A stretch of DNA of 64,000 bases from the NCBI GenBank assembly GCA_965224245.1, contig OZ245046.1, forward strand, positions 6,112,001-6,176,000, in the 5' to 3' direction. Position 1 is the first letter of the stretch. Each line of letters begins with the position of its first letter. Positions 8,494-55,550 of the stretch are shown one piece after another. Under the pieces are notes generated by a model. The model was not told where the DNA came from and searched no databases. It worked only from the letters and a program-made list of their open reading frames with translations. The position numbers and the translations under genes were made by a program. Origin of the DNA: Candidatus Eiseniibacteriota bacterium (GTDB lineage Bacteria > Eisenbacteria > RBG-16-71-46 > CAZAMP01).

Positions 8494-8564
8494 GAAGAAC
8501 CCCGCACACGCGGTTCGCGCCTCCGCAGGCCAACGGCGAGACTGGCCCGCAGTGTCCTAAAGTG

Positions 8565-8590
8565 GTGCGCCGCAAAAAGCGACGACATCC
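8565..8590 (+). ncRNA. Group II intron 5'-end remnant
   Basis: GTGCGCCGCAAAAAGCGACGACATCC matches the start of the intron at 53361; preceded by CGCAGTGTCCTAAAGTG. Confidence 0.55.
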
Positions 8591-8599
8591 CGCCTCGTT

Positions 8600-8858
8600 C
8601 GAAGAGGAGGCCGCGTTCTGGCCGGCCCGTCTCGACATGCCGTTCGAGGTGGTTGCGCTAGCGGACGTCGATCACGACGGTCGTATGGACATGCTCGAGC
8701 GGCAAGGTGATGGCCTCGTGATACGTCGCGGGTTGCCCAATGCATGTTTCTCACTGGAGACGTACCTGGCCGGCGATCCAGAGCCGGACGATGAGGTCTG
8801 GTGGCGAGACGTGACGGGCGACGGGATCTGTGATCTGCTGTCAAGTGGCTACTACTCC
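8600..8858 (+). pseudogene. FG-GAP/VCBS repeat protein fragment cut by IS66
   Basis: LADVDHDGRMD and WRDVTGDGICDLL loops; ends at the IS66 IR at 8859. Confidence 0.6.
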
Positions 8859-10260
8859 GTAAGCGGTCAGCCTAGGACGTCGGTCCACCCGGTCGGTCCA
8901 GCATGGACTGCAGCGGCTCCTCGGCGAAACGCGTCTTCCACTCACGCGGCGTGAGTTCATGGACGTTCTTCGCGGGATGGATCGCCACGCGCTGCAGCAC
9001 GTCGACGAGGTAGGCGAACGGATCGACGCCGTGAAGTCGGCACGTGACGATGAGGCTCTGCACCCACCCCAACGCCTCGGCACCCACTTCGGTCGTACAG
9101 AACAACCAGTTCTTGCGCCCGAGCGCCACCGGGCGGATCGTGCGCTCCAGGTGGTTCGTGTCCGGCGCGACGGCCGGATCGTCGAGGAACACCCGTAGCG
9201 CTCTCTCACGATCGAGCGCGTAGCGTGCCGCTTTGGTGAACGGACTGGTCGGCAAGAGGACGTGCTCATCCATCGCGGCCTCCAGCGCCGCGAAGAACGC
9301 GTCGACGATCGGGCGGCTGTGCTCGCGCCGATGCGCGAGGATCGCGTCGGGACCATCGAGCTCCGCGGCGCTCGCCTCTTGCTCATAGAGCGCACCGATG
9401 CGATCCAGCGCGTCACCTGCCAGCGAGGGTTCCACGTCCTCGCCGTCCACGAACCCGCGACGCACGTGGGCCCAGCACTGCGCATGCACCACCCCGGCAC
9501 GACGCGCCGCGTACTTCTCGTAGGCCTCGTACCCGTCGCTCAGAAGCGTGCCCGAGTAGTCGGCCAGGACCTCCTGGACCACCGCATGCGCCCGCGTCGG
9601 CGAGAACACGAACGCCACCTCGTCACGATCCCCGTACACCGGCCAGAAGTACCCGGTCTTCATCGTCCCCCGGTTCGGCGGCTTGCCCTTCTTGCGGCCC
9701 GCCTTGATCGGCGTCTCGTCCATCGCGATCACCTTGCTCGCGAGGATCGACTCCACCTGGGCCGCGAAGATCGGCCCCAGAAGGTCAGCCGCTCGATGGA
9801 AGTACGTCGTCAGCGTCGAGCGGCCGATCCGTACGCCGCTGGCCGCCAGACGCTGGTGCTGGCGATACAGCGGCAGGTGGTACGCCAGCTTGTCGATCAG
9901 CATCCCGGCCAGGAAGCTCACGTCGGCCACGCTCTTCTCCAACACGGTGATCGGCGCTGGCGGGCAGGAGAACGTCTCGTCGGTCTTGTGCTTGAACACC
10001 GGACGCACGATCCGAAGCACCACGTACGCGGCGGGGCGCTGGGCCAGCCGCTCGGTGACCTTCTCGCCGATCTTCTCGTACTGGTCCATCTCATCGGCCG
10101 GGATCTCGAGATTCGGGATCACGACCGTCTCCACCGGCACCGACTCGTCGAACCGGACTCCGGAGCTCGTGTCGCGTGGGGGGCGTCGACGCCGGGTGTG
10201 AGCACCGACCACCGTCGTTGCGTCCGCGGGCTCGGACGGCGCGTCGATCTCGCCGGGGGA
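8859..10260 (-). mobile_element. tnpC: Truncated IS66-family element (tnpC, ORF 8872-10212, N-terminus missing)
   Basis: IR GTAAGCGGTCAG at 8859; HLPLYRQ, MDETP, LSDGYEAY, CWAHVRR, TNHLERTIR..GRKNWLF; tnpA/tnpB absent; a related IR lies at 10500-10519. Confidence 0.9.
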
Positions 10261-10344
10261 GCAGAGGCCACGTTACGTGGGATGAACTCACACAGTCCTG
10301 GAACGGCTTCTAGGACCGTTTGGTCCCCCAAAAAACTTTGCCGT

Positions 10345-10373
10345 TCCTTCCCCGTGTGCGCGGGGATGGACCG
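10345..10373 (+). CRISPR. Single orphan type I-E-like CRISPR repeat (no array)
   Basis: 29 nt TCCTTCCCCGTGTGCGCGGGGATGGACCG with CCCCG/CGGGG stem and GGGGATGGACCG 3' end; no second repeat, no cas genes. Confidence 0.4.
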
Positions 10374-10445
10374 GCAGCGGGATCGCAGTTTCCGCCCGGC
10401 GATTACGCGGTTCCGTTCCAGATGCTGAGCTGCGTCGTGGTCGAG

Positions 10446-10476
10446 CCCGGCGACGGGTCGCTCCAGCCGGAAGCAG
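10446..10476 (+). ncRNA. Group II intron domain I fragment
   Basis: CCCGGCGACGGGTCGCTCCAGCCGGAAGCAG, close to 53405-53435. Confidence 0.6.
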
Positions 10477-10534
10477 GGGAGTTCGAGTTGCGTTCTGGGG
10501 TCCCGGGCGGGACGCTTACGCGAACCCGAGTGCA

Positions 10535-10601
10535 GGCTGGAGCGACCCGTCGACGAGCGGGATTCTCACTCGCTGGACGTCGACGCCCTTGCACGGCGCA
10601 C
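10535..10601 (-). ncRNA. Group II intron 5'-end remnant
   Basis: Minus strand GTGCGCCGTGCAAGGGCGTCGACGTCCAGCGAGTGAGAATCC...GACGGGTCGCTCCAGCC; preceded by GGTAGGGTCGGGAACTGG. Confidence 0.75.
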
Positions 10602-10809
10602 CCAGTTCCCGACCCTACCGGGTTCCATGAACGGACGTGTGCGGCATGCCACCGCAGTGCAGCTCTCCCCTACAGCTTCGTGCCTACGGCGCCCATCGTG
10701 TGCGCGGCGAGGGGATTCTATGGAAAGGCACACAGGCAACGCGCTATACTCACGCTGCGAGCAGTCTATTGGGGTGTTTACGGAGCCTGCTACGAAGGGA
10801 CCGACAACC

Positions 10810-12987
10810 ATGCGTGTTCATGTCGCCTCAGTGCTTCTCTTGGTGCTTGGTGCAACATCGAACGTTGAAGCCGAGGAGAGCTATCGTCCAGATCAGGCGA
10901 TCGTCCGGTTTCAGCCCGGGCTCGTGGAGTTTCCTGAGCACTTGGGCCGAGAGGTTTCACTCGAACAGATCGCGTTCGGTTCGGAATCCACGCGGACGCT
11001 TCTACGGGGACTAAGTGTTGTCAGCTTCCGAACGATCGCGCCGGAATGGCGCCACCTACCACTCCCGCCTCACGTCGACATCCACGGAAACGAACTCGCG
11101 AAGCCCCTCATCGACTTTACGGACGTGTACCTACTGACGCTCGCTACATCGGATGCGGCAGCCGTTGTGGGGACGCTTGGTCGAATGGAGCAAACCGTCG
11201 TCTATGCTCAAACAAACGACCGTGTTCGTGGAACCGCCGACGGAGACTGTGACCCTGACTCGGTCATTGTGAACGATGAGTTCTTCCCGGAGACATCCAC
11301 CTTTCCTGGGCAATTCTGCTTCAACAACACCGGGGTGTATCAGGTCGGCGCAGATACTGCCCTTGTTGACATCGACATCAACCTTCGCGAGGGATGGGAC
11401 GTTTGGTCCGACGTGACCGTGAAGGTCGGAATCGTGGATGTTGAGTTCGACAAAGATCACGATGACTTGGCCGGTGTCTTCGACCCGAATCTGTCGGCCT
11501 GTTTTCCCGCGGACCCCCTGTCCACGTGTGATTGGTTCGGTACTGCCGGCCAAGACCACGGCACGTCCTGCGCGGGTTTTCTCGCAGCACGGGCTAACAA
11601 CGACTGCGATGTCAACGGTGAAGAGTGCCTAGGCGTTGTAGGAGTACTTGGCAATGCGCCAAGCATTAGCTCGACGCCTCCCGTGGTGGCACTCCGCGTT
11701 GAGGCCACGGCTGGAGCGACCTACGTTGATGGGCTTTGCGATGCGTTCGAGTACGCGCATACTGCCTCGCTGCCGATTGTATCTTCAAGCAGAGTTTCTA
11801 GCTCTGGCGGTGGAGCATCGTTCTGCCTTGCCGAAGCGGTGAGCAATCTTGCGCAGAGCGGCATCCTCCTCGTGAACAGCTCCAGCAATCAAGCGGACGA
11901 CTTCCCTACACTCCCAGTGCGGTGGGATTCTCTCACTCTTGGCGTAGGCGCTGTGACGATCGAAGGCCAGGCGCCTGTGGGGTATCACAGAGGACCCTGG
12001 ATCGACGTCGTGGCTCCCGGTGGTACAGGTCCTGCGCCGCACACGACAGCTCGCGGCAATAACTACACAGCGTTCGGTGGGACGTCGGCTTCTGCTCCTC
12101 AGGTTGCTGGCGTGGCGGCGCTGATCGCGTCGCATACAACGCATGCCGAGCGAGAGGACTTGGTGAGCATCATCGCTCGACGCGCGGTCCTCCTTCCCGG
12201 ACAGATGGAGCCTGACTCAACGTTCGGCAGCGGGCTGGTGAAACTGGACAGATCACTATGCTGGGTAGAGGATAGGGACCTAGTGCACGGCACGAAATCA
12301 CAGACACCGACTCCGACCGAACACGCCGTGGAGCAGAGGAGTTTTCGCCACTGCGAGGACTTCCAGCCAGGTTCTTCCTCGGAAACACTGTACACGAAGG
12401 TGTGGGAGTACGAGGTCAGCGTCACGTTTCCTCCACACTCTGGGATCCTTGATTCGACGCATGTGTGGGCCCGCGACCACCTCTCTCCCGGTTGGCGAGA
12501 TACGTCGGACGTGAATGGCATCGAGGACATGACCTGGGCCGGTGTTCGCAACGTTACGAGCTCCGGCTGCGACCTGTACTCATACTTCTACGAGGTATAC
12601 AACGACGCTCTCTTGACGGACTTTCGTGGTTGGCATCCGTACGATCCGACCGGCGTTCAGCCGTCGCCAATGCAGTGGCGTTACTCGGCCATGCTGGAGC
12701 CGTCGAGTTCTAGGGCGAGTGAGTCGTCATCGGCTGATCTCGACATGGATCGTTCGGTCGACGCGACGCAGTTTGTCGTCCCCGTTTCCATAGAGGGAGC
12801 CGTACAGGTTGAGGCGTTCGATGTCCGCGGTAGATCCGTGAAGTCGTGGGACACTCTTCCGGTTCAGCCGGGCATGACCGTCATCGAGTGGGACATGGAG
12901 CTGCGAAGCGCCTCCGCGGGGGTCTACTTCCTTCGAGCGACGACCCCGAGTGGAAGACGAATCGTTGGGAAGGTCGTGCACAGATGA
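10810..12987 (+). CDS. Secreted S8 (subtilisin-family) peptidase with C-terminal FlgD/T9SS-like domain
   Basis: Signal peptide from ATG 10810; triad VGIVD, DHGTSCAG, GTSASAPQVAG; C-terminal FDVRGRSV..SAGVYFLR. Confidence 0.85.
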   Translation: MRVHVASVLLLVLGATSNVEAEESYRPDQAIVRFQPGLVEFPEHLGREVSLEQIAFGSESTRTLLRGLSVVSFRTIAPEWRHLPLPPHVDIHGNELAKPLIDFTDVYLLTLATSDAAAVVGTLGRMEQTVVYAQTNDRVRGTADGDCDPDSVIVNDEFFPETSTFPGQFCFNNTGVYQVGADTALVDIDINLREGWDVWSDVTVKVGIVDVEFDKDHDDLAGVFDPNLSACFPADPLSTCDWFGTAGQDHGTSCAGFLAARANNDCDVNGEECLGVVGVLGNAPSISSTPPVVALRVEATAGATYVDGLCDAFEYAHTASLPIVSSSRVSSSGGGASFCLAEAVSNLAQSGILLVNSSSNQADDFPTLPVRWDSLTLGVGAVTIEGQAPVGYHRGPWIDVVAPGGTGPAPHTTARGNNYTAFGGTSASAPQVAGVAALIASHTTHAEREDLVSIIARRAVLLPGQMEPDSTFGSGLVKLDRSLCWVEDRDLVHGTKSQTPTPTEHAVEQRSFRHCEDFQPGSSSETLYTKVWEYEVSVTFPPHSGILDSTHVWARDHLSPGWRDTSDVNGIEDMTWAGVRNVTSSGCDLYSYFYEVYNDALLTDFRGWHPYDPTGVQPSPMQWRYSAMLEPSSSRASESSSADLDMDRSVDATQFVVPVSIEGAVQVEAFDVRGRSVKSWDTLPVQPGMTVIEWDMELRSASAGVYFLRATTPSGRRIVGKVVHR

Positions 12988-14585
12988 AACGAAACGCTAG
13001 TGTTGCTCTGGTTGAGCGGTTCTTCCTCACCGTCCTCGTTGTCGCCCCGAGCGCGTCGTCGTTCCCGGTGTTGGATCAAGCCAAGATTAGCCAGACCGAA
13101 GGCGGGTTCTCTGGACAGATGCTCTTCTCCGGCTTCGGTTTCTCCGCCACTTCGGTCGGGGACCTGGATGGGGATGGGCGAGACGAGCTCGCGGTGGGGT
13201 CTCCTTGGCTCTTCGATGACGCAGAGGATTTCGAGACTGGCGGCGTGTGGATCTTGTTCCCTGCCACGTTTGATTCGTTGGCTAGCGAACAGCGGATTCA
13301 GTCGAACGTCGGCGGTTTCTCGGGCTTGCTGGATCAGGACGACTTCTTCGGCGCGAGTGTCGCCGCGCTTGGTGACCTCGACGGAGACCTCGTTCCGGAC
13401 ATCGCCGTTGGGTCCGCTTTTGACGACGACGGAGGTACCGACCGCGGAGCCGTCTGGATACTCTTCATGAACAGCGACGGAACGGTCCGAGATCACACGA
13501 AGATCAGTCAGACTTCGGGTGGCTTTGGGGGAACGCTGTCGGATGACGACTGGTTCGGTCGCTCGATATCTGTGATCGGAGATCTCGATGGGGATCTCGT
13601 GGTCGACATCGCGGTGGGACACGATCGCGCGGACGACAACGGGTTCGTCAATTGCGGAGCCGTCTGGATACTCTTCATGAACACCGACGGCAGCGTTCGA
13701 GATGAGGCTCGAATCACGAGTTCTGAGGGCTGGCCGGGCAACGACCTCGGAAGCAATAACTACTTCGGTCGGTCCGTGTCGTGGTTGGGAGACCTCGACG
13801 GAAACGGCATCACAGAGATCGCGGTAGGCGAACCGCGCGACAGCGACGGTAACGGTACACCAGGGGCCGTTTGGGTGCTCAGCGTTGGGCCAGGGGGAAG
13901 CGTCGTTGGCCAACAAAAGATCAGCACACTCGAGGGTGGCTTTCTCGGTGAGATCGAAGACAGCGATCAGTTCGGAGAGAGCTGCGTTGCCCTTCCTGAC
14001 TTGGATGGAGACGGAGTGCCCGAACTCGTCGTCGGCGCGGATGGAGATGACGATGGCGCGCCGCAGGCCGGTGCCGCTTGGCTCTTGTACCTGGACTCGG
14101 ACGGACGGGCCAAGGACTACAGGAAGATCAGCGCACTCGAGGGTGGCTTCACCGGTCAGCTGGATGAGACCGACTGGTTCGGCACCGGGCTTGCCTCACT
14201 CGGCGATGTCTCGGGTGACGGGATCCCGGATCTTGCGGTCGGCGCGCCGGGTGACGATGACGGTGGCGGGGCCTCCGGCGCACTTTGGCTGCTAGCGCTC
14301 GCCGACGACACCGTTGCTACCCCTCCGAGCAACGATGATCCACAGGCGCTCTCGGGAGTCCGCCCGCTACCTGCGGACCGGTTTGTCGTGATACAGCACG
14401 CCCGCACCGCGGAGGAGATCGTGGTTCACGACGCAGCGGGCCGCTTCGTCGTTCGGCTGCCGGTTTCTCGTGGTGCCTCGGCGTCACGATGGGATCTTCG
14501 CGATCTCAGGGGCCGGAGAGTGTCCAGTGGTGTGTACTTCGCTTCCCCATCGGGTTCGTCGGCGCTTCGCATGATCGTTCGGTGA
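12984..14585 (+). CDS. Secreted integrin-alpha/FG-GAP beta-propeller protein with FlgD-like C-terminus
   Basis: Seven FG..GDLDGDG..DIAVG..GAVWIL repeats; ATGA overlap with the peptidase; WDLRDLRGRRVSSGVYF. Confidence 0.85.
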   Translation: MKRNASVALVERFFLTVLVVAPSASSFPVLDQAKISQTEGGFSGQMLFSGFGFSATSVGDLDGDGRDELAVGSPWLFDDAEDFETGGVWILFPATFDSLASEQRIQSNVGGFSGLLDQDDFFGASVAALGDLDGDLVPDIAVGSAFDDDGGTDRGAVWILFMNSDGTVRDHTKISQTSGGFGGTLSDDDWFGRSISVIGDLDGDLVVDIAVGHDRADDNGFVNCGAVWILFMNTDGSVRDEARITSSEGWPGNDLGSNNYFGRSVSWLGDLDGNGITEIAVGEPRDSDGNGTPGAVWVLSVGPGGSVVGQQKISTLEGGFLGEIEDSDQFGESCVALPDLDGDGVPELVVGADGDDDGAPQAGAAWLLYLDSDGRAKDYRKISALEGGFTGQLDETDWFGTGLASLGDVSGDGIPDLAVGAPGDDDGGGASGALWLLALADDTVATPPSNDDPQALSGVRPLPADRFVVIQHARTAEEIVVHDAAGRFVVRLPVSRGASASRWDLRDLRGRRVSSGVYFASPSGSSALRMIVR

Positions 14586-14800
14586 CGTGCACACCGGGGC
14601 CGCGAAGGACGGGCGTGGTCCTCCGCCGTTCTTCACTGGGTTCGACCGTTGACCACGAAAACGGCTGGAGTTCGATGAGAACGGCGACCCCGCGTCGGGG
14701 TGGCCGGCAAATGGCGTTGGGCTCTCACCCGTTACCGACCACCACCGGAGTCATCGTGGTCTGGGAAACGCGAAGTCACGCCCGTTAGCGTCCGAGAATC

Positions 14801-14870
14801 GTGCGCCGCGAAAAGACATCGACGTCCAGCGGGTGCAAGACCTGCCGGCGACGGGTGGCTCCAGACGCAG
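14801..14870 (+). ncRNA. Group II intron 5'-end remnant
   Basis: GTGCGCCGCGAAAAGACATCGACGTCCAGCGGGTGCAAG...GGCTCCAG; preceded by CGTTAGCGTCCGAGAATC. Confidence 0.75.
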
Positions 14871-14896
14871 TTCGAGGTTCGAAACGAATTGTGGTA

Positions 14897-15261
14897 CCCC
14901 ACGTCGGACGCTCTGCAGAACTGAGAATCAAGCGGGTCGCGAGGAGTGCGAAGCGACGCATCTCGCAACTCGCATTGGAGAAAGCGCTTACCCGAGTTCG
15001 CGAGGCGTCCGAACCGGACACCAAGTAGGACGCAAAACGTAACAGAGAAAGTTAGCGGAGCGTCCTACGTGGGGAGCCACGCTCTGGGGGCGTCTACGGG
15101 CGCCCCTTCTTGTTGACTCTTCCTCACGCCTCTCTCGCCACCCCGAGGCCGTATATCGCGTTGGGGTGCAACGTTCTCCAGCGATATCCAGGCGTCGGAG
15201 TCTCAGCACCCTCGCGCGCTTCTATCCCCTCGCCGGGGGTTCGCCGGGCGTCCGACGTGGG
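14897..15261. repeat. Four copies of GCGTCC[G/T]ACGTGGG (two inverted, two direct)
   Basis: 14897-14913 (minus), 15021-15033 (minus, partial), 15058-15074, 15246-15261. Confidence 0.65.
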
Positions 15262-15344
15262 CGGCAATTCTCAGCATCTGCGTAACCGTTCGGGCATCCC
15301 ATCCGGGTGATCAGCCCGTGTCCCGGCGCGCTGTCGGGTGAGGC

Positions 15345-16958
15345 CTACCTGGGGTCTGCTTCGTAGCAGGGAACGTGGTTCTCGGGCAGCAGCTCGTCGA
15401 TCTTGGCGTCGGGCCACCCATCGGCGATGCGCTCGAGAACGCGGATGAGATACGCGTAGACGTCGATCTTCGCCAGCGCGGCGGTGCGCACGACGGAGTA
15501 GAGGATCGCCGCGCGCTGGGCGGCCCGGTCGGATCCCGCGAACAGGTAGTTCTTCCGACCGACGGCGACCGCTCTCAACTGCCGCTCGCACAGGTTGTTG
15601 TCCAACGGCAGATGTCCGTCGTCGAGGAAGCACCAGAGCGCGTCGTGTTGATTCACGACGTACCCGCACGCCTTCGACAGCGCGCTCTCGGGCGGCTCGG
15701 ACTCTTCGGTTCGCACGATCCATCGATCGAGCCGATCCAGGATCGCTCGGCTGCGCTCGGTGCGGAGCTCCTGGCGTTCGGGGGGATCGAGCCCACGCCG
15801 ATCGGCCAGCGTCTCCACTCGATACAGCTGCGCGATCAGCTTCAGCGGATACGCCACGCGAGAGTCCGTGTCGCGCAACGCCTCGAAGCCCCGCCTGGCA
15901 TGCGCCCAGCAGCCGACCTCGATCGCGCTGGCCACCTCGCCGTTGTACACCCGATCGTAGACCGTCGCCGCGTCCGCCTGGTGATAGCCCTCGCGGCCCG
16001 CCAGGAAGCGCCACGGGCCGTCCTCGCCCGTGCCGGTCTTCGCGTAGTGGAACGCCGCGTACGTCCCATCCCCGATGGCGCACCACATCGTGCCCATCCG
16101 CACCCCGTTCGGGTCGTCACGATCGAGCACCCGCAGCCCGGTCGCGTCGCTCTGCAGCGTGTGCGCGTGGAACGCCTTCTCCCAGATCCGCTCGGCGATG
16201 GGCCGTAGCTCCTCGGCCACGCGCGCCGTCCAGTCGCAGAGCGTGGAGCGCGCGATCGCGACCCCGCCGCGGGCGTAGATCTCGCTCAGCCGCGCCAGCG
16301 GGATGTGGTCCTGGTACTTCGCTTGAACGACGTGCGCCAAGAGGCTCGGCGCCGCACGACCCTTGTCGATGAACTTGGCGGGCCCCGGCGCGGTGACCAC
16401 CGCGTCCTTGCACGTCGAACACGCGTACTTCGTGCGACGGTGCTCCTCGACCTCGAACCGGGCGGGGACCAGGCGCAGGATCTCGCTCACGTCCTCGCCG
16501 ATCGCCTTCATCGGAACGCCACACGTGCCGCAAGGCAGATCCTGCTCCGGCAGCGTGTGGGTCACGATCTCGCGTGGGAGTGTCTCGGGGAGCCGTTGCC
16601 GGCGGGGCCGCCGCGTCGGCGGACTCGGCAACGCCGCTTCGGCCGCCGCGATCTCCTCCGTCAGCTGCGCATCGTCGGTCTCGGTGTCGTCGAGATCGTT
16701 CTCGGGATCGACGTTGTTCTCGGGCATCTTGGCCAACATCAACAACAGCTGAGCCGGGTCCACCTTCTCGCTCCGGATCCCCGCGCGCTTGCGACGCTCG
16801 GCGAACAGCGCCAGCTCGAGATGGAGGTTCCGGTGCAGGAGCAGGCGCATGCGCTCGAACGCCTTCTCGATCGCGTCATCGGTACGGCCGTTGGCGGCCA
16901 GCGTCTGGAGCTCGGAGCGGAAGCGCTCGAGTTCACGAGTGAGTTGCGCGAAGGTCAT
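15345..16958 (-). CDS. tnpC: IS66 transposase TnpC
   Basis: CGTCG/CSTC Zn finger, KYQDHIPLAR, CWAHARR, DNNLCERQLR..GRKNYLF. Confidence 0.95.
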   Translation of the reverse strand: MTFAQLTRELERFRSELQTLAANGRTDDAIEKAFERMRLLLHRNLHLELALFAERRKRAGIRSEKVDPAQLLLMLAKMPENNVDPENDLDDTETDDAQLTEEIAAAEAALPSPPTRRPRRQRLPETLPREIVTHTLPEQDLPCGTCGVPMKAIGEDVSEILRLVPARFEVEEHRRTKYACSTCKDAVVTAPGPAKFIDKGRAAPSLLAHVVQAKYQDHIPLARLSEIYARGGVAIARSTLCDWTARVAEELRPIAERIWEKAFHAHTLQSDATGLRVLDRDDPNGVRMGTMWCAIGDGTYAAFHYAKTGTGEDGPWRFLAGREGYHQADAATVYDRVYNGEVASAIEVGCWAHARRGFEALRDTDSRVAYPLKLIAQLYRVETLADRRGLDPPERQELRTERSRAILDRLDRWIVRTEESEPPESALSKACGYVVNQHDALWCFLDDGHLPLDNNLCERQLRAVAVGRKNYLFAGSDRAAQRAAILYSVVRTAALAKIDVYAYLIRVLERIADGWPDAKIDELLPENHVPCYEADPR

Positions 16959-16970
16959 GCACTCTTTGAA

Positions 16971-17351
16971 TCACATCGTCGCGCGCCAGGCAAGTCCCTT
17001 CTTCGGCGACCAGCGACTCCGGCGCTGGGAGCCGCGAAGATCGATCCCATCCAGGAGCAACGTCAGCTCCGACGACTCGATCTCGACGTGCGAGGACCCG
17101 ACCTCGGGGTGGCGCGGGAGCGTGAAGCGGCCGCGTTCGAGGCGCTTGTAGACGAGGAGATAGCCCGAGGGCTGCCAGACGAGGATCTTCATCCGGTTCG
17201 CGCGCCGGTTGATGAACACGAACAGGTGTCCCGAGAGGGGATCGGCGGAGATGATCTCGCGCGTGGCCGCCGAGAGCCCGTCGAAGCCCTTGCGGAGATC
17301 GACGGGCTCAGCGGCGATGTAGATGCGCACGGTGTGCGGCAGGGTCAGCAC
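16971..17351 (-). CDS. tnpB: IS66 accessory protein TnpB
   Basis: PVDLRKGFDGL, LFVFINRR..KILVW..KRLERGRF. Confidence 0.95.
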   Translation of the reverse strand: MLTLPHTVRIYIAAEPVDLRKGFDGLSAATREIISADPLSGHLFVFINRRANRMKILVWQPSGYLLVYKRLERGRFTLPRHPEVGSSHVEIESSELTLLLDGIDLRGSQRRSRWSPKKGLAWRATM

Positions 17352-17701
17352 GGATCGAGCGCCTCGATGAGCTCGTGTAGCAGCGTGCGATCGAAGCCGC
17401 GGCGGACGACGATCCGGTGGCGCTGCCCGACGATGAGCTCGATACCGGCGTCGGAGTCGGCCACGTCGGCGTCAGCCGTCTCCACGATCTCGACCGGGTG
17501 GAAGCGGGGGCTGCCGTCGGCCTCGAGCTTGGACTTCCAGCGGCGCAGTCGCGACACACTGAGGCCACACTGTCGCGCAAAGGCGTTCAGTGTGAGCCCA
17601 CTCTGGCTCCAGATGGCAAGTGCGCGTTCCGCGTCCGACTCCCGCCAGTAGCGGTTGTCGGAGATCGGGGCGAGCGCGGTCGTGATCGACTTCGAGAGCA
17701 T
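17345..17701 (-). CDS. tnpA: IS66 accessory protein TnpA (HTH)
   Basis: WSQSGLTLNAFARQCGLSVSRLRRWK, FHPVEIV; first ORF of the IS66. Confidence 0.85.
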   Translation of the reverse strand: MLSKSITTALAPISDNRYWRESDAERALAIWSQSGLTLNAFARQCGLSVSRLRRWKSKLEADGSPRFHPVEIVETADADVADSDAGIELIVGQRHRIVVRRGFDRTLLHELIEALDPC

Positions 17702-18129
17702 GCGGCACCTCCTCGGGTGCGCACGTTCTCAGGACCGGCCGATGGGCTCAACATGGGTTCACCGAACGGATACGCATCTGCGAACCGGCAGCCCCGTTGT
17801 TGACACCGCCGCCGTAACCCGTTGGTACGCCTTGAGCCGATTGCGGCTTTCCGCGACTCGCACGGAACGTGTTGAAGACGCGATCGAGGTGCCACGCGCT
17901 CCGGATTGAGCATCACCGGTCACGTGTGGCTATGTGCACGCATTTTGGAGAGGGACAGGGACGATCACGATTCGTTGTGGCCGTTTTCGCGGCCGATCTG
18001 CGCGTACTGGATGTTCGGCACTTCGGGCCGCGCACTTTCGCCGCACGCGGAGTGCCGCGCGTTCCCTCACCAGTTTGGCCCAGGGGCGGTATCGCGCGTC
18101 CTCGTCGGCCGCGCTGTTCCCGGGAGGTG

Positions 18130-18636: not shown

Positions 18637-18757
18637 GAAGAGATCAGAATGTGCCTTGACTAGGGTCGTTCCATATCAGAACCGGACTCCGACGCGGAGG
18701 TCTCCGGGACCTGCTGAACGTGCATGAAATCCACGCCTTACGAAACGGGAGGAACTC

Positions 18758-37239: not shown

Positions 37240-38573
<1,334 letters not shown>

Positions 38574-38750: not shown

Positions 38751-38888
38751 GCGCCCGTTCGTGCGCCATAGTCGCTCACCCTCTCTTGCGAGAGGCTAAG
38801 TTGTCGCGAGGAAGGCTAATCTACCGGAAGAAACCCTGGCTAGGCACGGATGGAGCAGGCCCTGGCTAGGTGTAACGTCCGAAAGCGG

Positions 38889-38956
38889 GTGCGCCGTGAA
38901 GAGCCCACGACATCCAGCGGGTAAGCCCGGCGACTGGCCGCTCCAGCCGGAAGCAG
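38889..38956 (+). ncRNA. Group II intron 5'-end remnant
   Basis: GTGCGCCGTGAAGAGCCCACGACATCCAGCGGGT...CGCTCCAGCCGGAAGCAG; preceded by TGTAACGTCCGAAAGCGG. Confidence 0.75.
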
Positions 38957-39043
38957 CGGTTCGCGATGTGTTCTTGGGGGGCAGGTAGGACTCGAACTCG
39001 CAGGGCCTTTGACTCGAACGGGTTGTTCGACGTTCCGCGTCGA

Positions 39044-39136
39044 GTCGCGAGCGCCCCGGTGGACTGCTGAGGTACTACCATCGGGAGGCGGCGTGATGGG
39101 GCGGTTCTGGGCCCGGTTCAATTGTTTGACGCAACG
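39044..39136 (+). mobile_element. 3' end and right IR of an rve-integrase IS
   Basis: GTCGCGAGCG..GGTGG.CTGCTGAGGTACT.CCATCGGGAGGCGGCGTGATGGGG nearly identical to 60407-60464; ends AATTGTTTGACGCAACG. Confidence 0.75.
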
Positions 39137-39194
39137 CTGCGAAGTCGGATGGAGGCGCGGCTCCGGTGTGCAGTCGGTCTTCGGCATGGACACA

Positions 39195-48500: not shown

Positions 48501-49031
48501 GACCCCAGCGACCGGCCGTTCCGCGGGTGGCAGAGCAATCAGAAGGACTACGAGTTTTCGCGCCTCATGTGCCGGGCCCGCTACTACCCCGGGACGCCCC
48601 GGGGTGTGACACGCATGTGGTTCAACATGTACGGCGCCACGCCCGGGTCTGTGGAAGGCACGAAGACACGATCCGACGGACTGGCCAAGAACCCGAAGAC
48701 GAACTACCAGGCGATGTTTCGGTCCGGTTCTCACCAGTCGGCCACACGTGGCTGGCTGAAGCCCACCTGGATGACGGACTCGCTCGTACGCAAGGATCTC
48801 TTCGGGCAGTCGATCGGAAAGGGATTCCTGCCCGATGTTCATTGCCCCACGGGAGCGCCCCGGGAGGCGATCGTCAAGATCACCCGAGCCGAACCCGGCG
48901 GGCTCAACGCCGAGGGACTGTGGCGGCCCGCGGCCAAGGGCCTGAGACCATCGTACGAGAGCGATGCGATGCGCCGGTATCTCGTGGGTTCCTTCCTCGA
49001 GAGGGGCGACTCCCATGGAGGTGATGTCTGA
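45573..49031 (+). CDS. nxrA: Periplasmic nitrite oxidoreductase / nitrate reductase alpha subunit (type II DMSO reductase family)
   Basis: Tat motif TRRRFLQ; FS0 motif CAPNDTHNC...RICQKG (Cx3Dx3C as in periplasmic NXRs); putative Mo-ligand Asp in [21 protein letters not shown]. Confidence 0.85.
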
Positions 49032-50158
49032 TGGCACGCGTTCGCAACTGGCAGCTCGACCGGGACATGTCCTACTGGTATCCGGAGAGTCGCCCCCGAC
49101 GACAGTTCGCCGCTGTTTTTGATACGAACAAGTGCATTGCATGTCAGACCTGCACGCTCGCCTGCAAGACGACCTGGACGTCGGGCAAGGGGCAGGAATA
49201 CATGCTGTGGAACAACGTCGAATCGAAGCCCTACGGCTTCTATCCCCTGGGGTGGGATCTCAATGTCCTCGAGAAGCTGGGGGGCGGTAACTGGACGGAA
49301 GGACGGTACGACGGGCGCACGATCTTCGAGGCCGCGGAGGCCGGAGAGCGCGTGCTCGGCTGGCGGCCGGACGACCACGACTACGCGTATCCCAACGTGG
49401 GAGAGGACGACTGCGCCGGCACCGTCGAAGGCGGCGCGTTCATGCAGCTTCCTCACACGCGGTGGTTCTTCTACCTCGCCCGCATCTGCAACCACTGCAC
49501 GTTCCCGGCCTGTGCGGCATCCTGTCCGCGGGGATCGATCTACAAGCGATCCGAGGACGGCATCGTTCTCGTCGATCAGCAGCGGTGTCGGGGATACCGT
49601 GAGTGCGTGAAGGCCTGTCCATACAAGAAGGTCTTCTTCAATCCCACCACGAACACCTCCGAGAAGTGTATCGGCTGTTTCCCCAAGATCGAGATGGGTG
49701 AGCAGCCACAGTGCTTCGTTAACTGCATCGGGAAAATCCGGCACGTCGGTTTCGTGTCACGTCCCGAGGACGCGCGGCCGGACAATCCGATCGATTACCT
49801 GGTCCACGTTCGAAAGGTCGCACTTCCTCTCTATCCGCAGTTCGGTCTGGAGCCGAACGTGTACTACGTGCCGCCGGTTCACGTGCCGCGTCCATTCCTT
49901 CGTCAGATGTTCGGACCTGCCGTGGATGGTGCGATCGAGACCTACCGTCAGTCGGCGGACGATCCCGATCTCACCGCGCTGCTCTCTCTCTTCGGATCGA
50001 GCCACAGGATCATGCATCGGTGGAGACGCACCGGAGATCAGGTGCTCGGACTGGATGCCCGGGGCGACGAGATCGTGCGCGTGCCGGTCAAGGAGCCCGT
50101 GCACGTTCGAAAGGCCTTCGACGATGCACAGGGCGTCGTTCGCTCGAACGTCACGTGA
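49031..50158 (+). CDS. nxrB: NXR/Nar beta subunit (four Fe-S clusters)
   Basis: [70 protein letters not shown]. Confidence 0.9.
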
Positions 50159-50179
50159 GTGGGCTCACGCAAAGGAGCG

Positions 50180-51091
50180 ATGTTCATGAAATCGGGTGCG
50201 AAGGATGGTGGTACCCGGGCAGTTCCCGCGCACGGCAATCGCGCGGCAGTTTCCCTGACAGTCTCCATCGTCGGGATGTCCGTCATCTCCGGGTGCGAAA
50301 GTGAGCCACCAGCGGCGGTGGAGGTGGACGCCGCCCATGTCGAGACGCTCCCGTCGACGCAGGAGGACGCCGCGTGGCGGGGAGCACCGGTCTATATGGC
50401 GCCGCTCCTTCCGCAGGACATGGTCGAACCCCGTCTGCTCGACACCAGCACCGCCACCGTGCGCGTGCAGGCCCTGACCGACGGCGAGAGGGTGGCCTTT
50501 CGGCTCAACTGGGCGGACGACACACTCGACGATCTGCCTGGCGCCTCGCGCTTCTCGGACGCCTGCGCGGTCCAGCTGCCCGCGTCTCCGGGTCCGGACT
50601 TGCCGGCTCCGCAGATGGGCGAGACCGGCAAACCCGTCGAGATGACCTACTGGACGGCTGCCTGGCAGGCGGAGGTCGACGGAAGACCGCTCGAAACGAC
50701 GACGCTCTACCCGAACGCCAGCGTCGATCACTATCCCTTCGAGGCCCCATCGCTCGAGCCCGGATCGGAGGAGCAGCGGGCCATGGAGCTTCGCTATGCG
50801 CCGGCACGCGCAGTGGATCGCCCTGACCACCCGGCGGATCGACCGGTTCAGGATCTCGTGGCGGAGGGACCGGGCACGATCACCGCCGCTGAACGCACCG
50901 CATCGGACGGTCACGGGCGGCGGATGCCATGGGGATGGGACGTCATCCTCGTCCGACCGCTCTCCCCGGTGCTGAGAGCCGCCGCGCGCTCGCACGTCGC
51001 CTTTGCGGTGTGGGACGGAGGCCGTGAGGAGGTCGGCGCGAGGAAGATGCGCTCCGTCTGGATCCCGATGCGACTGGGAGGGACACCGTGA
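50180..51091 (+). CDS. Heme b gamma subunit (EbdC/NxrC-like), putative lipoprotein
   Basis: ISGC lipobox; VAFRLNWAD, FSDACAVQLP, PQMG, VAFAVWDG..GARK; follows the beta subunit. Confidence 0.8.
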   Translation: MFMKSGAKDGGTRAVPAHGNRAAVSLTVSIVGMSVISGCESEPPAAVEVDAAHVETLPSTQEDAAWRGAPVYMAPLLPQDMVEPRLLDTSTATVRVQALTDGERVAFRLNWADDTLDDLPGASRFSDACAVQLPASPGPDLPAPQMGETGKPVEMTYWTAAWQAEVDGRPLETTTLYPNASVDHYPFEAPSLEPGSEEQRAMELRYAPARAVDRPDHPADRPVQDLVAEGPGTITAAERTASDGHGRRMPWGWDVILVRPLSPVLRAAARSHVAFAVWDGGREEVGARKMRSVWIPMRLGGTP

Positions 51092-51723
51092 GAACCGGAT
51101 CTTCCTCGACACAGCTCGTCCGCTCCGCTGCCGAGTGGCGACTTCTCGGCCTGCTTTTTGAGCGGAAACGCCCGGACACGCTGTCGGAGATCCGGTCACT
51201 TTCGGAGGAGATCGCTGACGCGCTGCTCGGGAAGGCTGCTGACCGCATCGACGACGTGACCTCGGCTCAGTACATCGACGCGCTGGGCCCGGGAGGACTG
51301 GTTCCTGCCCGCGAGGTTGCGTACCGCGGTCGAGAGGATCCGGGCCAGATCATCGCGGACGTATCAGGGTTCTATGATGCCTTCGCCTTCAAGCCGACCG
51401 TCGAGGACCCACCGGATCATGTCGCCGTCGAGTGCGGCTTCGTGGGCTACCTCTTCCTGAAGCAGGCCTACGCCGTCTCGGCTGGGGATCAGGAGAGGAC
51501 GCAGCTCACGTGTGGAGCGCGCGAACGCTTCGTCGACGCCCATCTCCAGCACTTTGCCCGGCCTCTCGCGGAGCGCCTCGTGGCAATCCAGCACCCAGTC
51601 CTCTCCCGGGCTGCTCTCGCGCTGCAGGATCGCGTGGGGCCGGCTCCCGTTCCCGTCTCCCTCGATACGGACATGGAGGCATTGGGGGGTGATCACGCGT
51701 GTGGATCGTGCGGCCCACGGTGA
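51088..51723 (+). CDS. TorD/DmsD/NarJ-family molybdoenzyme chaperone
   Basis: VSGFYDAFAF, PPDHVAVECGFVGYL, FVDAHL. Confidence 0.85.
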   Translation: MRTGSSSTQLVRSAAEWRLLGLLFERKRPDTLSEIRSLSEEIADALLGKAADRIDDVTSAQYIDALGPGGLVPAREVAYRGREDPGQIIADVSGFYDAFAFKPTVEDPPDHVAVECGFVGYLFLKQAYAVSAGDQERTQLTCGARERFVDAHLQHFARPLAERLVAIQHPVLSRAALALQDRVGPAPVPVSLDTDMEALGGDHACGSCGPR

Positions 51724-51824
51724 AGAGAGACGAGTCCCCTGATCGCCCAGGATCTGACGTGTCAATGCAATCGGAGGACGCAAGCGAGTGGACGGCGAAT
51801 CTCACGCCTGACCGGTCGTTACAC

Positions 51825-51849
51825 CTCGGTCGCATTCTCTGACCCTACG
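51825..51849 (-). repeat. Unoccupied rve-IS terminal repeat / intron target motif
   Basis: Minus strand CGTAGGGTCAGAGAATGCGACCGAG matches the spliced target of the 53361 intron at 21/25. Confidence 0.7.
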
Positions 51850-52019
51850 AGGGCCGCAACGCAGTGAACCCACGGGTGGCCTCGACAAACAATGGTTCCG
51901 GAGGCGGAGCTCTAGGGTCCGGCGAAGGCAGCATGGCGTATCGCAGACTGACTGACGCGGCACGTCACGCCGGCGGGGTGGGAGGGACGGCACGGTGACA
52001 ACGACGCGCTGAGCAACTG

Positions 52020-52229
52020 GAGAAGAGATGGATACACGAGACGCTGGGACTCTACGATGATTACCGGGTTCGCTGGTCCGCGTCGGCAGCCACTCCGGCT
52101 CGATGAGTCTCATAACCCTTGGCGCGAAGCATGCAGGAGCGCGTAGTGCGGGAAATCCGCACGCTGCGTGCGGCGTGGCGGGAGCTGGAAACGGAGTCAA
52201 TGGATCACCGCGCCAGCTCTCGACCCTAC
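52020..52229 (+). ncRNA. 3' remnant of a different group II intron (RT C-terminus, DV, DVI)
   Basis: KRWIHETLGLYDDYRVR; DV-like GAGCGCGTAGTGCGGGAAATCCGCACGCTGCGTGC; end ACCGCGCCAGCTCTCGACCCTAC. Confidence 0.75.
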
Positions 52230-52542
52230 CGCGATCGGACGTGAACGACCGGTAATAGCGTCCCTTGAATCGACTGCACAGTGCTCTGACACGTCACGCA
52301 TGGACCGATGCCCACCGACATCGATCCGGGTCGAGAACGTGGTCAGCGGGGTGCGACACCATGGGCTCGCTCCTTCCGGCAAGCGATTCTCGGCGCCCTC
52401 TACTTGCTTTGCTCGATTGCGGCCGCCAGTACTCTCTCATCGTTGTCGTACATGGGAGCCGAAGATGAGATCCTGGTCGGCGACGGCGGCTCCGTGGTGG
52501 GGTCCTCCCACTATGCCGGTTGCTCGGTGTCGCCCGGGGCTA

Positions 52543-53100
52543 CTATCCGATCTCGTCCACACGTACCGGGAATCCCCGATGTGCCTCGCCGCCGACTCCG
52601 AACGCGCGAAAGTCGTACGTGTGAGGAGATCCCGGGAGGGCGAGCGTCACGAACAGGGTCACACCGGCCTCCGGCTCGATCTCGACGTCGATGTTGTCGA
52701 CCACGACGTGACGAACCGCAGGCTGGTCCTCCGATGCGAAGTCGACGTTCAGCTCACCGGTCCACATGCCCTCGTTGGGGTTGTGGAAGTAGATCTCCGC
52801 CTCCACCACGCTCCCGAGGTCATGAAGCTGCATCGCGATCGCCAGGCCGCTGCAGGGGTCTCCCCGGTCGGGGGCGGATTCGGCCGGAGACGCGATCGGC
52901 TCCAGGTACTGAGATCGGGGGTCCCGCATGAGCTTCCAGGAAAGAACGACCGCGCCCACCACGACCGATCGGTCGCTCTCGCCGCCTGGCGAGCGCGCGA
53001 CCGCGGCCGGCGACGACGGGCCTTCGCCGCCGCAGGCGCTCATGAGCGCCACGACCAGCACCACGCCGATCGCGAGTCGGCGGACCTTCGAGCTGCACAA
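52543..53100 (-). CDS. Hypothetical lipoprotein
   Basis: RRLAIGVVLVVALMSAC lipobox; start uncertain. Confidence 0.55.
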   Translation of the reverse strand: MCSSKVRRLAIGVVLVVALMSACGGEGPSSPAAVARSPGGESDRSVVVGAVVLSWKLMRDPRSQYLEPIASPAESAPDRGDPCSGLAIAMQLHDLGSVVEAEIYFHNPNEGMWTGELNVDFASEDQPAVRHVVVDNIDVEIEPEAGVTLFVTLALPGSPHTYDFRAFGVGGEAHRGFPVRVDEIG

Positions 53101-53360
53101 TCCACGGCCTCCTCGAGTTCGTCGGACCGGGACGCCTGGCCCTATGTGCGGTCGGTGTATCGTGGCGCCCCGCTACTACCCGTGCGCAGAAGGGCCGGCG
53201 GAACACATCATGGAGTCGCCGAAAAGATGTCGGTGCGCAGGTGAAGACGTCCGGGACGCGGTAACCGGTTCCAAAACGTCTAGGGCCCGTATTGGGAGAG
53301 AACTCAGGTCATCGCACCGTTGGCGTGTGAGTCGTGGAAAGCCCGTAGGGTCAATGAACT

Positions 53361-55353
53361 GTGCGCCGTGAAAAGGCGGCGACGTCCAGCGGGTGCAAGC
53401 CCCGCCCGGCAACGGATCGCTCCAGCCGGAAGCAGTCGAGCGGCGGAGGAGGTAACGAGTCCGTCGAAGCCTCGATGGAACGAGTCACTTCGGGTGACTC
53501 AGCGCAGCATGCAGGCCGAAACGTGAGTGAACGCTGAGCAGGCCTCGAAAGACCGAGATGCGGGAGCCGACCTGTCAGTTTTTCAGGGAAGGCCGCCGTC
53601 GAGCAGGGAAGAAGCGATAGATGCACCCGCTCGGTCCCGCCGGGGTAGTGGCGTCGGCATGTATGCGAGAGGGACGTCGATCGCAACACGGGAAGCCCCA
53701 TCGGTGAGGGCGTGACCTCAACCGGACTCCCGCGAGGGACAGGCCGGGCCGTATGGGGTGGCGGAGAGGCCCGTAGTAGTGATGAAGCCGGGTAATGCCG
53801 GTGGAGCGAAGGGGCCTTGGGTCGAGGTCAACGTAGGACGTAGCGACAGCCAGGAGAGTGGCCGTGAGCCTGAGACCTCCGGAAACGGTTGGGAAGCTAC
53901 AGGCGACGTTGCATGCCAAAGCGAAGGGATCGCCCGACTACCGGTTCTACACGCTGTACGACAAGGTGTATCGCTCGGACGTGCTCGCGTACGCGTATCG
54001 GCTCTGCCGTCACAACGGTGGAGCGGAAGGCGTCGACGGGCAGTCGTTCGAGGACATCGAGACGTTCGGTCGCGATCGGTGGTTGGACGAACTGACGGAG
54101 GAGCTTCGAACGAAGCGTTACCGTCCGAGGCGGTCCGGCGGGTCCACATCCCCAAGCCGGGCCAGCCGGGGCGAACGCGCCCGCTCGGGATCCCGACGAT
54201 CCGAGACCGGGTGGTGATGACGGCCGCGACGCTGGTGCTGGCACCGATCTTCGAGGCCGACCTCCCACCCGAGCAGTACGCCTACCGTCCGGAGAAGAGC
54301 GCGCTGGACGCGGTTCGCCACGTCCACACGCTGTTGACGTCGCGGCACTGGGAGGTGGTCGACGCGGACCTGTCCGGGTACTTCGATACGATCCCGCACG
54401 CCGAGCTGATGAAGTCGGTGTCGCGTCGCGTCGTGGATCGGCATGTACCACGGCTGATCAAGATGTGGCTCCAGGCACCGGTGGAAGAGACGGACGATCG
54501 GGGTCGGCGCCATCGAACGACCCGGAACAAGGACGAGGGGAGAGGATGCCCACAAGGAGCGCCCATCTCTCCGCTGCTGGCGAACCTCTACATGCGGCGC
54601 TTCATCATGGGATGGAAGGTGCTCGGACACGAGACGCGTCTTCAGGCCCAGATCGTCAACTACGCCGATGACTTCGTGATCTGCTGCCGTGGCTCCGCCG
54701 AGGAGGCGATGGTCACGATGCGGGGCATGATGCGTCGGTTGAAGCTGACGCTCAACGAGGAGAAGACGCGGATCCGTCGGCTCCCGGACGAGTCGTTCGA
54801 CTTCCTCGGGTACACCTTCGGACGATGCTACTCGCGTCGGACGGGCCGCCGATACATCGGTCAGCGCCCGTCGAAGAAGAAGGTGGCAGCGATCTGTCAC
54901 CGGATCAGCGAGTGGACGTCGTCGCGTTGGAGCTTCCTGGACGAGACGGAGCAAGTCGCCCGACTCAACCGGATGATGGTCGGGTGGGCGAACTACTTCT
55001 GCCAAGGTCCGGTGAGCTCCGACTATCGAAGGATCACCGAGCACGCCCGAGAACGGGTGCGCCAGTGGTTGCGACGAAAGCACAAGGTGCAGGGTCGAGG
55101 ATACTCACGCTTCCCCGACGATTACCTGCACGGAGAGCTGGGCCTGGTACAGCTCCGTCTGTGCGATCGCAACGTCCCGTGGGCGAGCGCATGAGTCCTC
55201 GTCCGAGAGCCGGATGCGGGAAACCCGCACGTCCGGTTCGACGAGCGGGAGTGTGGAGACGGAGCAGGGTTCGGATAGTGAGGCACCGGCAGACGAAAGG
55301 GCCGGAGAACAGGCAGGCCGAACCTAAACCACCGCGCCACCTCCCGACTCTAC
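53361..55353 (+). ncRNA. Full-length group II intron
   Basis: 5' GTGCG at 53361; DV GAGCCGGATGCGGGAAACCCGCACGTCCGGTTC at 55207-55239; 3' end CCCGACTCTAC; candidate EBS1 AGTTT (53577-53581) pairs with exon GAACT. Confidence 0.92.
53858..55194 (+). pseudogene. ltrA: Group II intron reverse transcriptase/maturase, one frameshift near 54125, no endonuclease domain
   Basis: KLQATLHAKAK..LYDKVYR..GVDG in one frame; RRVHIPK..RPLGIPTIRDR, DADLSGYFD, PQGAPISP, YADD, FDFLG, GWANYF in another. Confidence 0.9.
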
Positions 55354-55550
55354 CGACCGAGCCGCAACTTGGCTCTGCCGTTGAGCTTGGCTGCCAGCGC
55401 ATGCTCGCTCCCGGGTAGTGAGTCAGTGACCCACCGCCCGCTCCCGAGTCGAGTTGATGGGACCCCCCGAGCGCAATCAGGCTCTCGAGTTCGCCCACTC
55501 CATCGAGACGCCGAACGCTTCTCCCGATACATCTCCTGATCGTGATCCTG
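55354..55550 (+). mobile_element. Left-end segment of an rve-integrase IS (interrupted by the intron), truncated
   Basis: Homologous to 59695-59868 (shared GCAACTTGG, GTTGAGCTT, ATCAGGCTCTCGA, TTCGCCCACTCCATCGAGA, CCGATACATCTCCTGATCGTGATCCTG). Confidence 0.75.

Follow-up and report, generated by a model that had tools for sequence, protein, structure and literature searches.

Why does one short motif precede five separate group II intron ends in a single stretch of bacterial DNA? The stretch, here called the window, comprises 64,000 nucleotides (nt) of a Candidatus Eiseniibacteriota genome (assembly GCA_965224245.1, contig OZ245046.1, positions 6,112,001 to 6,176,000 of the forward strand). 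An initial annotation of its letters had proposed that five introns, the last ending at 55365, inserted into the terminal inverted repeat of an insertion sequence (IS) and represent a lineage specialised on transposon ends. Our analysis bears out the specialisation and the repeated insertion. Very probably, an intron of the IIB type whose protein lacks an endonuclease retrohomes to one position, 17 nt from the tip, in the repeat of an IS family with an rve_3-type transposase. This reading is carried by the position of the junctions in the repeat, by the use of both repeats, by independent insertions in relatives, with identical introns residing in diverged IS copies, and by exon-binding sites (EBS) that covary with the intron-binding sites (IBS) of the exons.

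All five 5' ends that had been placed after the motif are real: each begins GTGCGCCG and is homologous to the first 26-82 nt of a full-length intron. Five introns there are not, since only the element at 53361-55353 is whole. The other four (junctions 8565, 10601, 14801 and 38889) are relics of ~26, 82, 68 and 80 nt, as read by eye from alignments, and no reverse transcriptase (RT) or domain V (D5) sequence was found downstream of them. A scan of the window at Rfam gathering thresholds detected one group II intron only, whose domains I to IV (D1-D4) match RF02003 (53387-53526, 90.2 bits) and whose domains V and VI (D5/D6) match RF00029 (55205-55353, 43.6 bits), both above threshold. The RF00029 match ends at 55353, which places the 3' splice site there, as does the terminal CTAC; the annotated end at 55365 had thus included 12 nt of exon. 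The element has a GUGYG-type 5' start, a 3' AY, D1-D4 and D5/D6, as a group II intron should. Its protein of 478 amino acids (aa) contains RVT_1 (5.9e-35) and GIIM (9.1e-13) and no other domain at E ≤ 0.001, so that the domain search found RT and maturase (X) domains only and no endonuclease (D/En) domain. The protein scores 281.7 bits against TIGR04416, slightly below the cutoff of 300, and its C-terminus reads ..LGLVQLRLCDRNVPWASA before the stop codon, ending ..LRLCDRNVPWASA. Without the open reading frame (ORF) the ribozyme measures 556 nt (1993 - 1437). No spliced joint (53360/55354) was present in four sequencing runs, which are kept as contigs and whose kind is not on record; the joints seen in these runs (e.g. 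53816 to 55205) have short sides and correspond to conserved RT/D5 sequence of other metagenome introns.

The sequence around the intron is that of an IS. Similarity between the flanks of IS copies is lost just upstream of CGTA, which places the intron 17 nt inside the element and within the repeat; the 5' exon motif CGTrnGGTCaAnGAACT is the outer 17 nt of a ~25-bp terminal inverted repeat. Removing the intron rebuilds the 25-mer CGTAGGGTCAATGAACT joined to CGACCGAG. The same 25-mer is uninterrupted at 51825-51849 (4 mismatches), at 60476-60500 (5), at C10:7550 (4; C1, C10, C11 and C23 name contigs of the same genome) and in a few more places, and the match counts given for the first two by the initial annotation (21/25 and 20/25) are exact. 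At C10:7550 the empty repeat, CGTGTGGTCAAGAAACT followed by CGACCGAG, comes directly after a transposase C-terminus (..GGLLRYYHREAA, then the stop). As also proposed, the 3' exon continues as the left end of the IS: it is 82% identical over 45 nt, then 84% over 122 nt, to the left part (59695-59867) of the copy at 59695-60500, and the IS homology ends after ~200 nt, ahead of a MerR-type gene at 55675. What had been called the right repeat of an rve-integrase element, at 60476-60500, is indeed an empty right repeat; the copy to which it belongs is internally deleted, which explains why the ORF at 59616-60506 has no Pfam rve match, and in its left repeat the outer 17 nt can no longer be recognised. 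Across the genome, 16 sites match the 25-mer at up to 6 mismatches versus 0-4 for five shuffled versions, and ~9-10 of the 16 are credible empty ends by eye, versus 12 occupied ones. Two further empty repeats, in inverted orientation ~313 bp apart and with no intron stub, lie at C1:6231325-6231637; this looks like a miniature, transposase-less IS derivative.

The IS family is ~1.4 kb long, with a 360-aa rve_3-type transposase and ~25-bp repeats at both ends, and thus combines a DDE integrase-core transposase with terminal inverted repeats. Intact or near-intact relatives in other genomes encode 360 aa with rve_3, HTH_32 and HTH_21, the same domains being found in the transposases at two intron loci described below (L011 and L001; rve_3 at 3.6e-11), and the IS of a third, L005, measures 1406 bp without the intron, by arithmetic. 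At least 7,959 of 8,000 candidates examined are relatives at E ≤ 0.001; they are ~360 aa long and are named 'transposase InsO family protein' or 'DDE-type integrase/transposase/recombinase' in their sources. A 260-aa partial transposase did not reach the NCBIfam cutoffs for IS481 (76.9 of 224 bits), IS3 (64.4 of 160) or IS630 (52.6 of 100). All copies of this IS in the genome under study are broken; it contains no intact transposase of the family, the best match being 224 aa on C10.

BLAST of the intron against this whole genome (6.94 Mb, 27 contigs) detected 11 sites with an intron 5' end, the intact intron included, and one piece only from the intron 3' part. The 26-nt stub at 8565 is below BLAST length and was counted in addition, giving 12 junctions: ten 5' stubs of ~26-86 nt, one copy cut at nt 1108 and the intact intron. 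All 12 lie directly 3' of recognisable versions of CCCGTrgGGTCaAnGAACT. We scored the motif over its first 11 positions, building the score only from exons of other genomes and taking 27,858 GTGCG sites as background. A score of at least 7 was reached by 8 of the 12 junctions versus 4.3% of the background sites, and a score of at least 8 by 6 of the 12 versus 0.6%. Two of the 12 score just 4, and the boundaries of these two are blurred; the scores of the window junctions are given in Table 1. The bare GTGCG carries no signal alone, with 242 matches in the window versus 304.8 expected.

To follow the intron beyond this genome, species-representative genomes were searched with the RT only, which yielded 79 loci, and 28 rows of 5' junctions were located. 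Eleven rows, from 10 loci, show CGTAnGGTnAAnnnAnT before the intron and C(G/A)(G/A)(C/T)CGA after it; 16 have different exons and one (L008) has 6 nt of exon only. The ten repeat-type loci belong to metagenome-assembled genomes (MAGs): L001 to one labelled Gemmatimonadota, L002, L011 (two rows) and L027 to Acidobacteriota, and L003-L006, L009 and L023 to one Gemmataceae MAG. A transposase of the family adjoins the intron in 6 of the 10. In L003, L004, L005 and L011(+) the transposase gene follows the intron on the same strand, with its start codon ~135 nt on, which assigns these introns to the left repeat; in L001, L002 and L011(-) it is antisense, which assigns them to the right repeat. The opposite repeat is empty on the right in L005 (..CGTACGGTCAAGAAACT, then GAAAC..) and on the left in L001, and in L011 two convergent introns, 3602-5602 (+) and 8990-6990 (-), bracket one IS (5603-6989).

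The Gemmataceae MAG is informative about the age of the insertions. Five intron copies are 99.9-100% identical over ~2 kb, whereas their IS 3' flanks (300 nt) are 80-90% identical between copies, with one pair at 99.7%; outside the IS the values are ~70-83%, the level of unrelated DNA in such an alignment. The intron is hence of much more recent date than the split between the IS copies that host it, which argues for repeated retrohoming rather than one inherited insertion. In addition, a pattern of 22 letters, all of them from the intron, was used to scan metagenomes. This gave at least 80 loci, and an IS-repeat-type exon (score of at least 8) precedes the intron in 16 of the 79 usable junctions, among the matches listed, that have at least 19 nt of exon. 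The contigs are too short to judge association with a transposase. A search for the partner repeat by reverse complement (up to 8 mismatches in 28) was too insensitive, returning none even in known positives.

Site recognition was examined next, by aligning domain I from 17 introns; tallies were made on 14, one per distinct intron-exon combination, leaving out L004, L011b and L027 as repeats of L003 or L011a. The loop of a domain I hairpin, EBS1, changes in step with the last exon bases: AGTTT faces GAACT in the window, ACTTT faces AAAGT in L001, AGTATTT faces AAATACT in L002, AGTTTTT faces AAGAACT in L003 and ACTAAAT faces ATTTAGT in L023. Anchored at -1, EBS1 pairs on average 5.5 bp with its own exon (n=14) versus 1.95 bp when matched to other exons (n=174). 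That the bases adjoining the junction vary, on which the annotation had remarked together with an EBS1 of about 5 nt, is thus explained by matching changes in an EBS1 of 5-7 bp, the window's own pairing being 5 bp. The EBS2 candidate of the window, in the single-stranded ..AAAGACCGAG.., pairs with GGTC; elsewhere the pairs are TACCG/CGGTA (L003), CGGGT/ACCCG (L010), ACGC/GCGT (L020) and GGGC/GCCC (L017). These pairings span 3-5 bp and average 3.9 bp for cognate versus 2.9 bp for non-cognate exons, a weaker support than that for EBS1. T-15 is present in 12 of the 14 exons and so is A-14, with the pair shifted by one position in L020 and L021. T-15 is the critical protein-read position of RmInt1 and RmInt2, as shown experimentally in the excerpted text of PMC4615759, and by analogy T-15/A-14 are most likely read by the intron protein here. 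Of 8 upstream 40-mers that were folded, none was more stable than its shuffled versions (z -0.96 to +0.97). Judged from these pairings, recognition is sequence-specific and works by base pairing, on an ordinary IIB-type sequence-guided target.

In relatives whose RT is 50-65% identical, TA(G/A) is retained and the exons fit the intron's own EBS1, and mostly its EBS2, but at other sites. In one of them, L025, the intron starts 12 nt past the TAG that ends the ribosome-recycling-factor gene (frr), and L010, L029, L032, L020 and L021 lie between ordinary genes. Transposases of other families occur at least 1 kb away in L010, L026, L012, L022 and L021, so these distant relatives may have other mobile targets; the idea that they too target IS ends is unsupported for most, given L025 and the intergenic loci. 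In L025 (3589-3604) it is the TA of the TAG stop codon itself that supplies the conserved T-15/A-14. A sister lineage in one Planctomycetota MAG (L012, L018, L022, L024 and L030) recurs at GCTACGACCCCTACCAGGG followed by CGATCGG, with an inverted copy of the upstream exon ~40 nt downstream of the insertion, which suggests a small palindromic repeat as its target.

Three other accounts of these data were weighed. Coincidence, the motif standing by chance before a few GTGCG sites of a GC-rich genome, is refuted: GTGCG is indeed common in the window and two of the five window junctions score just 6/11, but the junctions were found by homology to the intron and not by the motif, half of the 12 reach a score that 0.6% of the background reaches, and the same exons recur in other phyla. 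Group IIC introns use recurring non-coding sites such as terminators and attC, often in mobile DNA; they have no EBS2 and need a stem-loop. The present intron shares with them a recurring non-coding class of site, as the initial annotation had suggested, and the variable junction bases and a window EBS1 pairing of just 5 bp could be taken for recognition of a structure, such as a hairpin or the shape of a transposon end, with very little base pairing. We consider this very improbable. The intron differs from group IIC in having an EBS2 candidate that, like EBS1, pairs with the exon and that prefers its own exon, if weakly, and in having no hairpin just upstream in the 8 exons folded; EBS1 changes match exon changes, and distant relatives at unrelated, unstructured sites still match their own EBS1 and mostly EBS2. 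With sequence pairing present and the upstream hairpin missing, the comparison with group IIC fails.

More can be said for hitch-hiking, in which one or a few ancient entries into a repeat were multiplied when the IS, or a larger block undergoing duplication, took the intron or its stub with it. The relics are without exception old and cluster in a single repeat-rich region of the genome, window 14795-15288 is a second copy of the composite found at C23:4729-5223 (75% identity over ~500 nt), and L003 and L005 combine a near-identical IS flank with an identical intron at two different sites. We nevertheless hold hitch-hiking to be unlikely as the general explanation, since identical introns sit in IS copies that differ by 10-20%, both repeats are occupied, even both of one IS, repeat variation from genome to genome is tracked by EBS1, and the collapsed element of ~265 bp (38871-39137) has no second copy in the genome. 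The identical introns in diverged IS copies speak against the possibility that all junctions copy one old insertion, although at least the pair 14801 and C23:4735 is paralogous.

Retrohoming into the IS repeat, the reading that we prefer, would proceed as follows. The intron would insert 17 nt from the repeat tip, between ..GAACT and CGACCGAG, with EBS2 pairing with GGTC (-12..-9), EBS1 pairing with the 5-7 exon bases next to the 5' junction, and T-15/A-14 presumably contacted by the protein. Because the two ends of the IS are inverted copies of one sequence, either end would be open to invasion, with the intron always reading inward. As the protein has no endonuclease, priming would presumably be by nascent DNA at replication forks. 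In the present genome the IS family is dead and decay has reduced most intron copies to short 5' stubs; the intact intron and one 99%-identical truncated copy attest fairly recent activity. The intron presumably splices, and it may also disable the IS or travel with it, as the initial annotation had suggested.

Several points weigh against this reading. Since the genome has no intact IS copy, IS activity cannot be tied to the intron here. The five window junctions need not all be independent, one of them (14801) being a paralogous copy of C23:4735. Four of the ten repeat-type loci have no recognisable transposase, and among repeat-type metagenome contigs with at least 2.6 kb downstream one of five carries a transposase fragment. 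L003 and L005 share the intron (100%) and the IS variant (99.7% over the flank) at two different sites, which may reflect two homing events or one event plus IS movement; some copies, this pair and 14801/C23:4735 among them, may have spread by duplication or IS movement. In L002 the upstream flank is that of L011(+), whereas the 3' exon is that of L011(-). We infer that such an arrangement would arise if two intron copies in inverted orientation recombined and thereby flipped the IS body, and the right-repeat placement in L002 may accordingly stem from inversion and not from direct insertion. Finally, EBS2 pairs over 3 bp only in L002, L011a and L021 and over 2 bp in L025.

The prevalence of 5' stubs is the opposite of the pattern that incomplete reverse transcription would leave, namely 3' pieces. 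Sequence downstream of the relics gave no significant alignment to the intron tail plus the IS left end (z at most 2.4), indicating that most stubs are not simple internal deletions. One exception, seen by eye, is C11:38064, in which an internal deletion has brought nt 86 up against the 3' half of D5. Other stubs adjoin unrelated sequence, an inverted piece of the intron (nt 44-75, at 10445-10476 past the relic of junction 10601) or the IS C-terminus (39044-39137), and no common mechanism for the end points was found across the 12 genome copies. An Rfam scan of 8300-15400 gave no match at E ≤ 0.1; the full RF02003 model weakly matched stubs at C23 and C11 only (24-25 bits). A wider idea, which is tentative and to which we give a low chance, is an old partnership across several phyla between the intron clade and a huge IS family, in which EBS1 is retuned as the IS ends drift, intron pairs flip the IS body (L011 versus L002) and a regular deletion leaves the tip plus ~60-86 nt; such a deletion route would explain 10 of the 12 copies being 5' stubs.

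Table 1. Positions of the intron, its relics and parts of the host IS in the window (motif scores out of 11).
Feature	Position	Strand	Description
IS repeat tip and intron 5' relic	8548..8590	+	Tip GCAGTGTCCTAAAGTG, 26-nt relic; junction 8565, score 7
IS repeat tip and intron 5' relic	10520..10619	-	Tip GGTAGGGTCGGGAACTGG, ~82-nt relic; junction 10601, score 8
IS repeat tip and intron 5' relic	14783..14868	+	Tip GTTAGCGTCCGAGAATC, ~68-nt relic; junction 14801, score 6; paralogue of the C23:4729-5223 composite
Collapsed IS, ~265 bp	38871..39137	+	Left tip TGTAACGTCCGAAAGCGG, ~80-nt relic (junction 38889, score 6), then ~75 nt unassigned, transposase C-terminus (39044-39137) and right inverted repeat ending ..TTGACGCAACG
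Solo unoccupied IS inverted repeat	51825..51849	-	21/25 matches
5' exon of intact intron	53344..53360	+	Outer 17 nt of IS left inverted repeat; IBS2 (GGTC, -12..-9), IBS1 (GAACT, -5..-1), T-15/A-14
Complete group II intron	53361..55353	+	1993 nt; first bases GTGCG, last bases CTAC; junction 53361, score 11
EBS2 candidate	53551-54	+	GACC
EBS1	53577-81	+	AGTTT
Intron-encoded protein	53758..55194	+	478 aa; RT and maturase (X) domains; YADD motif
3' exon	55354..55570	+	Inner 8 nt of repeat (CGACCGAG), then IS left end
Internally deleted IS copy	59695..60500	+	Left end with transposase N-terminus, transposase C-terminus (..GGLLRYCHREAA, then stop), empty right repeat 60476-60500

Other elements lie near these features. 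Just outside the solo repeat at 51825-51849, a remnant of a second, more diverged group II intron (51879-52229, +) matches RF02005 model positions 116-216 at 51879-51979 (27.3 bits) and RF00029 at 52137-52229 (36.2 bits, below gathering); it ends ..GACCCTAC, followed by CGCG, and its D5/D6 part is similar to the 3' part of the mini-copy C11:38064. Between this remnant and the full intron, a 358-aa ORF (52168-53244, +) has no Pfam or NCBIfam match and could be a spurious frame in GC-rich DNA. A transposase gene (37240-38487, -; Pfam rve, rve_3, HTH_21) that lies ~400 bp away from the 38889 relic contains an ALIL pseudoknot (38179-38295, -, 114.3 bits), the frameshift signal of IS3-family elements. 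An IS66-family element (15282-17774, -; transposase 15345-16958, DDE_Tnp_IS66) sits inside the older relic-bearing repeat. Copies 99.9% identical to it at C1:911288-913784 and C1:3187712-3190204, together with the empty site at C23, indicate that it inserted recently; the notion that the stubs belong to IS66 ends was rejected, the element being a later insertion. An older IS66 copy lies at 8872-10212 (-). On C1, a ~22-bp tandem repeat (GAGCGCATGGGACCGAGCCAGG, ~5 copies, 4120700-4120830, -) stands directly upstream of the second, 99%-identical intron copy.

The class of the intron can be approached from its size and its relatives. It has no D/En domain, a IIB-like ribozyme of 556 nt and, in domain I, EBS1 and an EBS2 candidate, all in keeping with class E/IIE, and its protein is 59-60% identical to those of introns of Photorhabdus khanii and Xenorhabdus. 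By ribozyme size, lack of endonuclease and this identity, the intron probably belongs to ORF class E. The published systems below are taken from excerpts of the cited papers. IIE and IIF ribozymes measure 450-700 nt without the ORF, and the Photorhabdus luminescens intron P.l.I1 is classed as IIE (PMC3753933). The 478-aa protein lacks LX3AX3PXLF[V/A]HW, the C-terminal motif of class D defined in PMC4615759, and the excerpts state no class E signature from which the class could be named. In the RT tree, classes D and E are sister groups (PMC3552965), which, in our inference, fits a shared reading of T-15.

Homing of an intron into the inverted repeats of an IS is not new, having been described for RmInt2 and ISRm17 (PMC4615759), and IS targeting by group II introns is a widely used strategy (PMC3522654). 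The principle of an intron parasitic on a transposon, end repeats included, is thus already published, and the present locus opens no new question of principle. It extends RmInt2-type behaviour to a different intron lineage, a different and abundant IS family and soil/freshwater phyla, supplies naturally varied EBS1/IBS1 pairs of potential use in retargeting experiments, and illustrates the rearrangement of a host IS by a pair of introns. The limited literature collection searched contained no paper on either the intron lineage or the IS family.

Among known systems, the IIE intron P.l.I1 resembles the present one in its small IIB-like ribozyme, EBS1/EBS2 in domain I and lack of endonuclease (PMC3753933), whereas the Photorhabdus and Xenorhabdus relatives are not located in ends of this IS family. 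The enterobacterial E.c.I1, E.c.I3, E.c.I4, E.c.I9 and c-Ha.de.I1 likewise retrohome to a fixed IS position; they belong to other classes and use other IS families, and terminal-repeat targeting is not reported in the excerpts of PMC3522654. RmInt1 (in ISRm2011-2) and Sr.md.I1 (in an IS66-type unit) are also endonuclease-less specialists of multicopy IS, with a critical T-15 and old fragments, but their targets lie in the IS body or transposase gene and not in a terminal repeat (PMC4615759, PMC5894124). The closest parallel is RmInt2 of Sinorhizobium meliloti GR4, an endonuclease-less IIB intron, all copies of which lie inside the inverted repeats of ISRm17 (PMC4615759; PMC5894124). There, each IS offers two sites on opposite strands, which raises the chance of a lagging-strand target (PMC4615759). 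RmInt2 differs in being a class D intron of an alphaproteobacterium with a 419-aa protein that carries the class D motif, versus 478 aa without the motif, an rve_3-type IS and hosts labelled Gemmatimonadota, Acidobacteriota and Gemmataceae here. The two introns are alike in targeting left and right terminal repeats, in EBS1/EBS2/EBS3 pairing combined with a protein-read distal 5' exon containing T-15, as known for RmInt2, and, as sequence comparison indicates for the present lineage, in copies that sit in the terminal repeat, occupy both repeats and arose by independent insertions.

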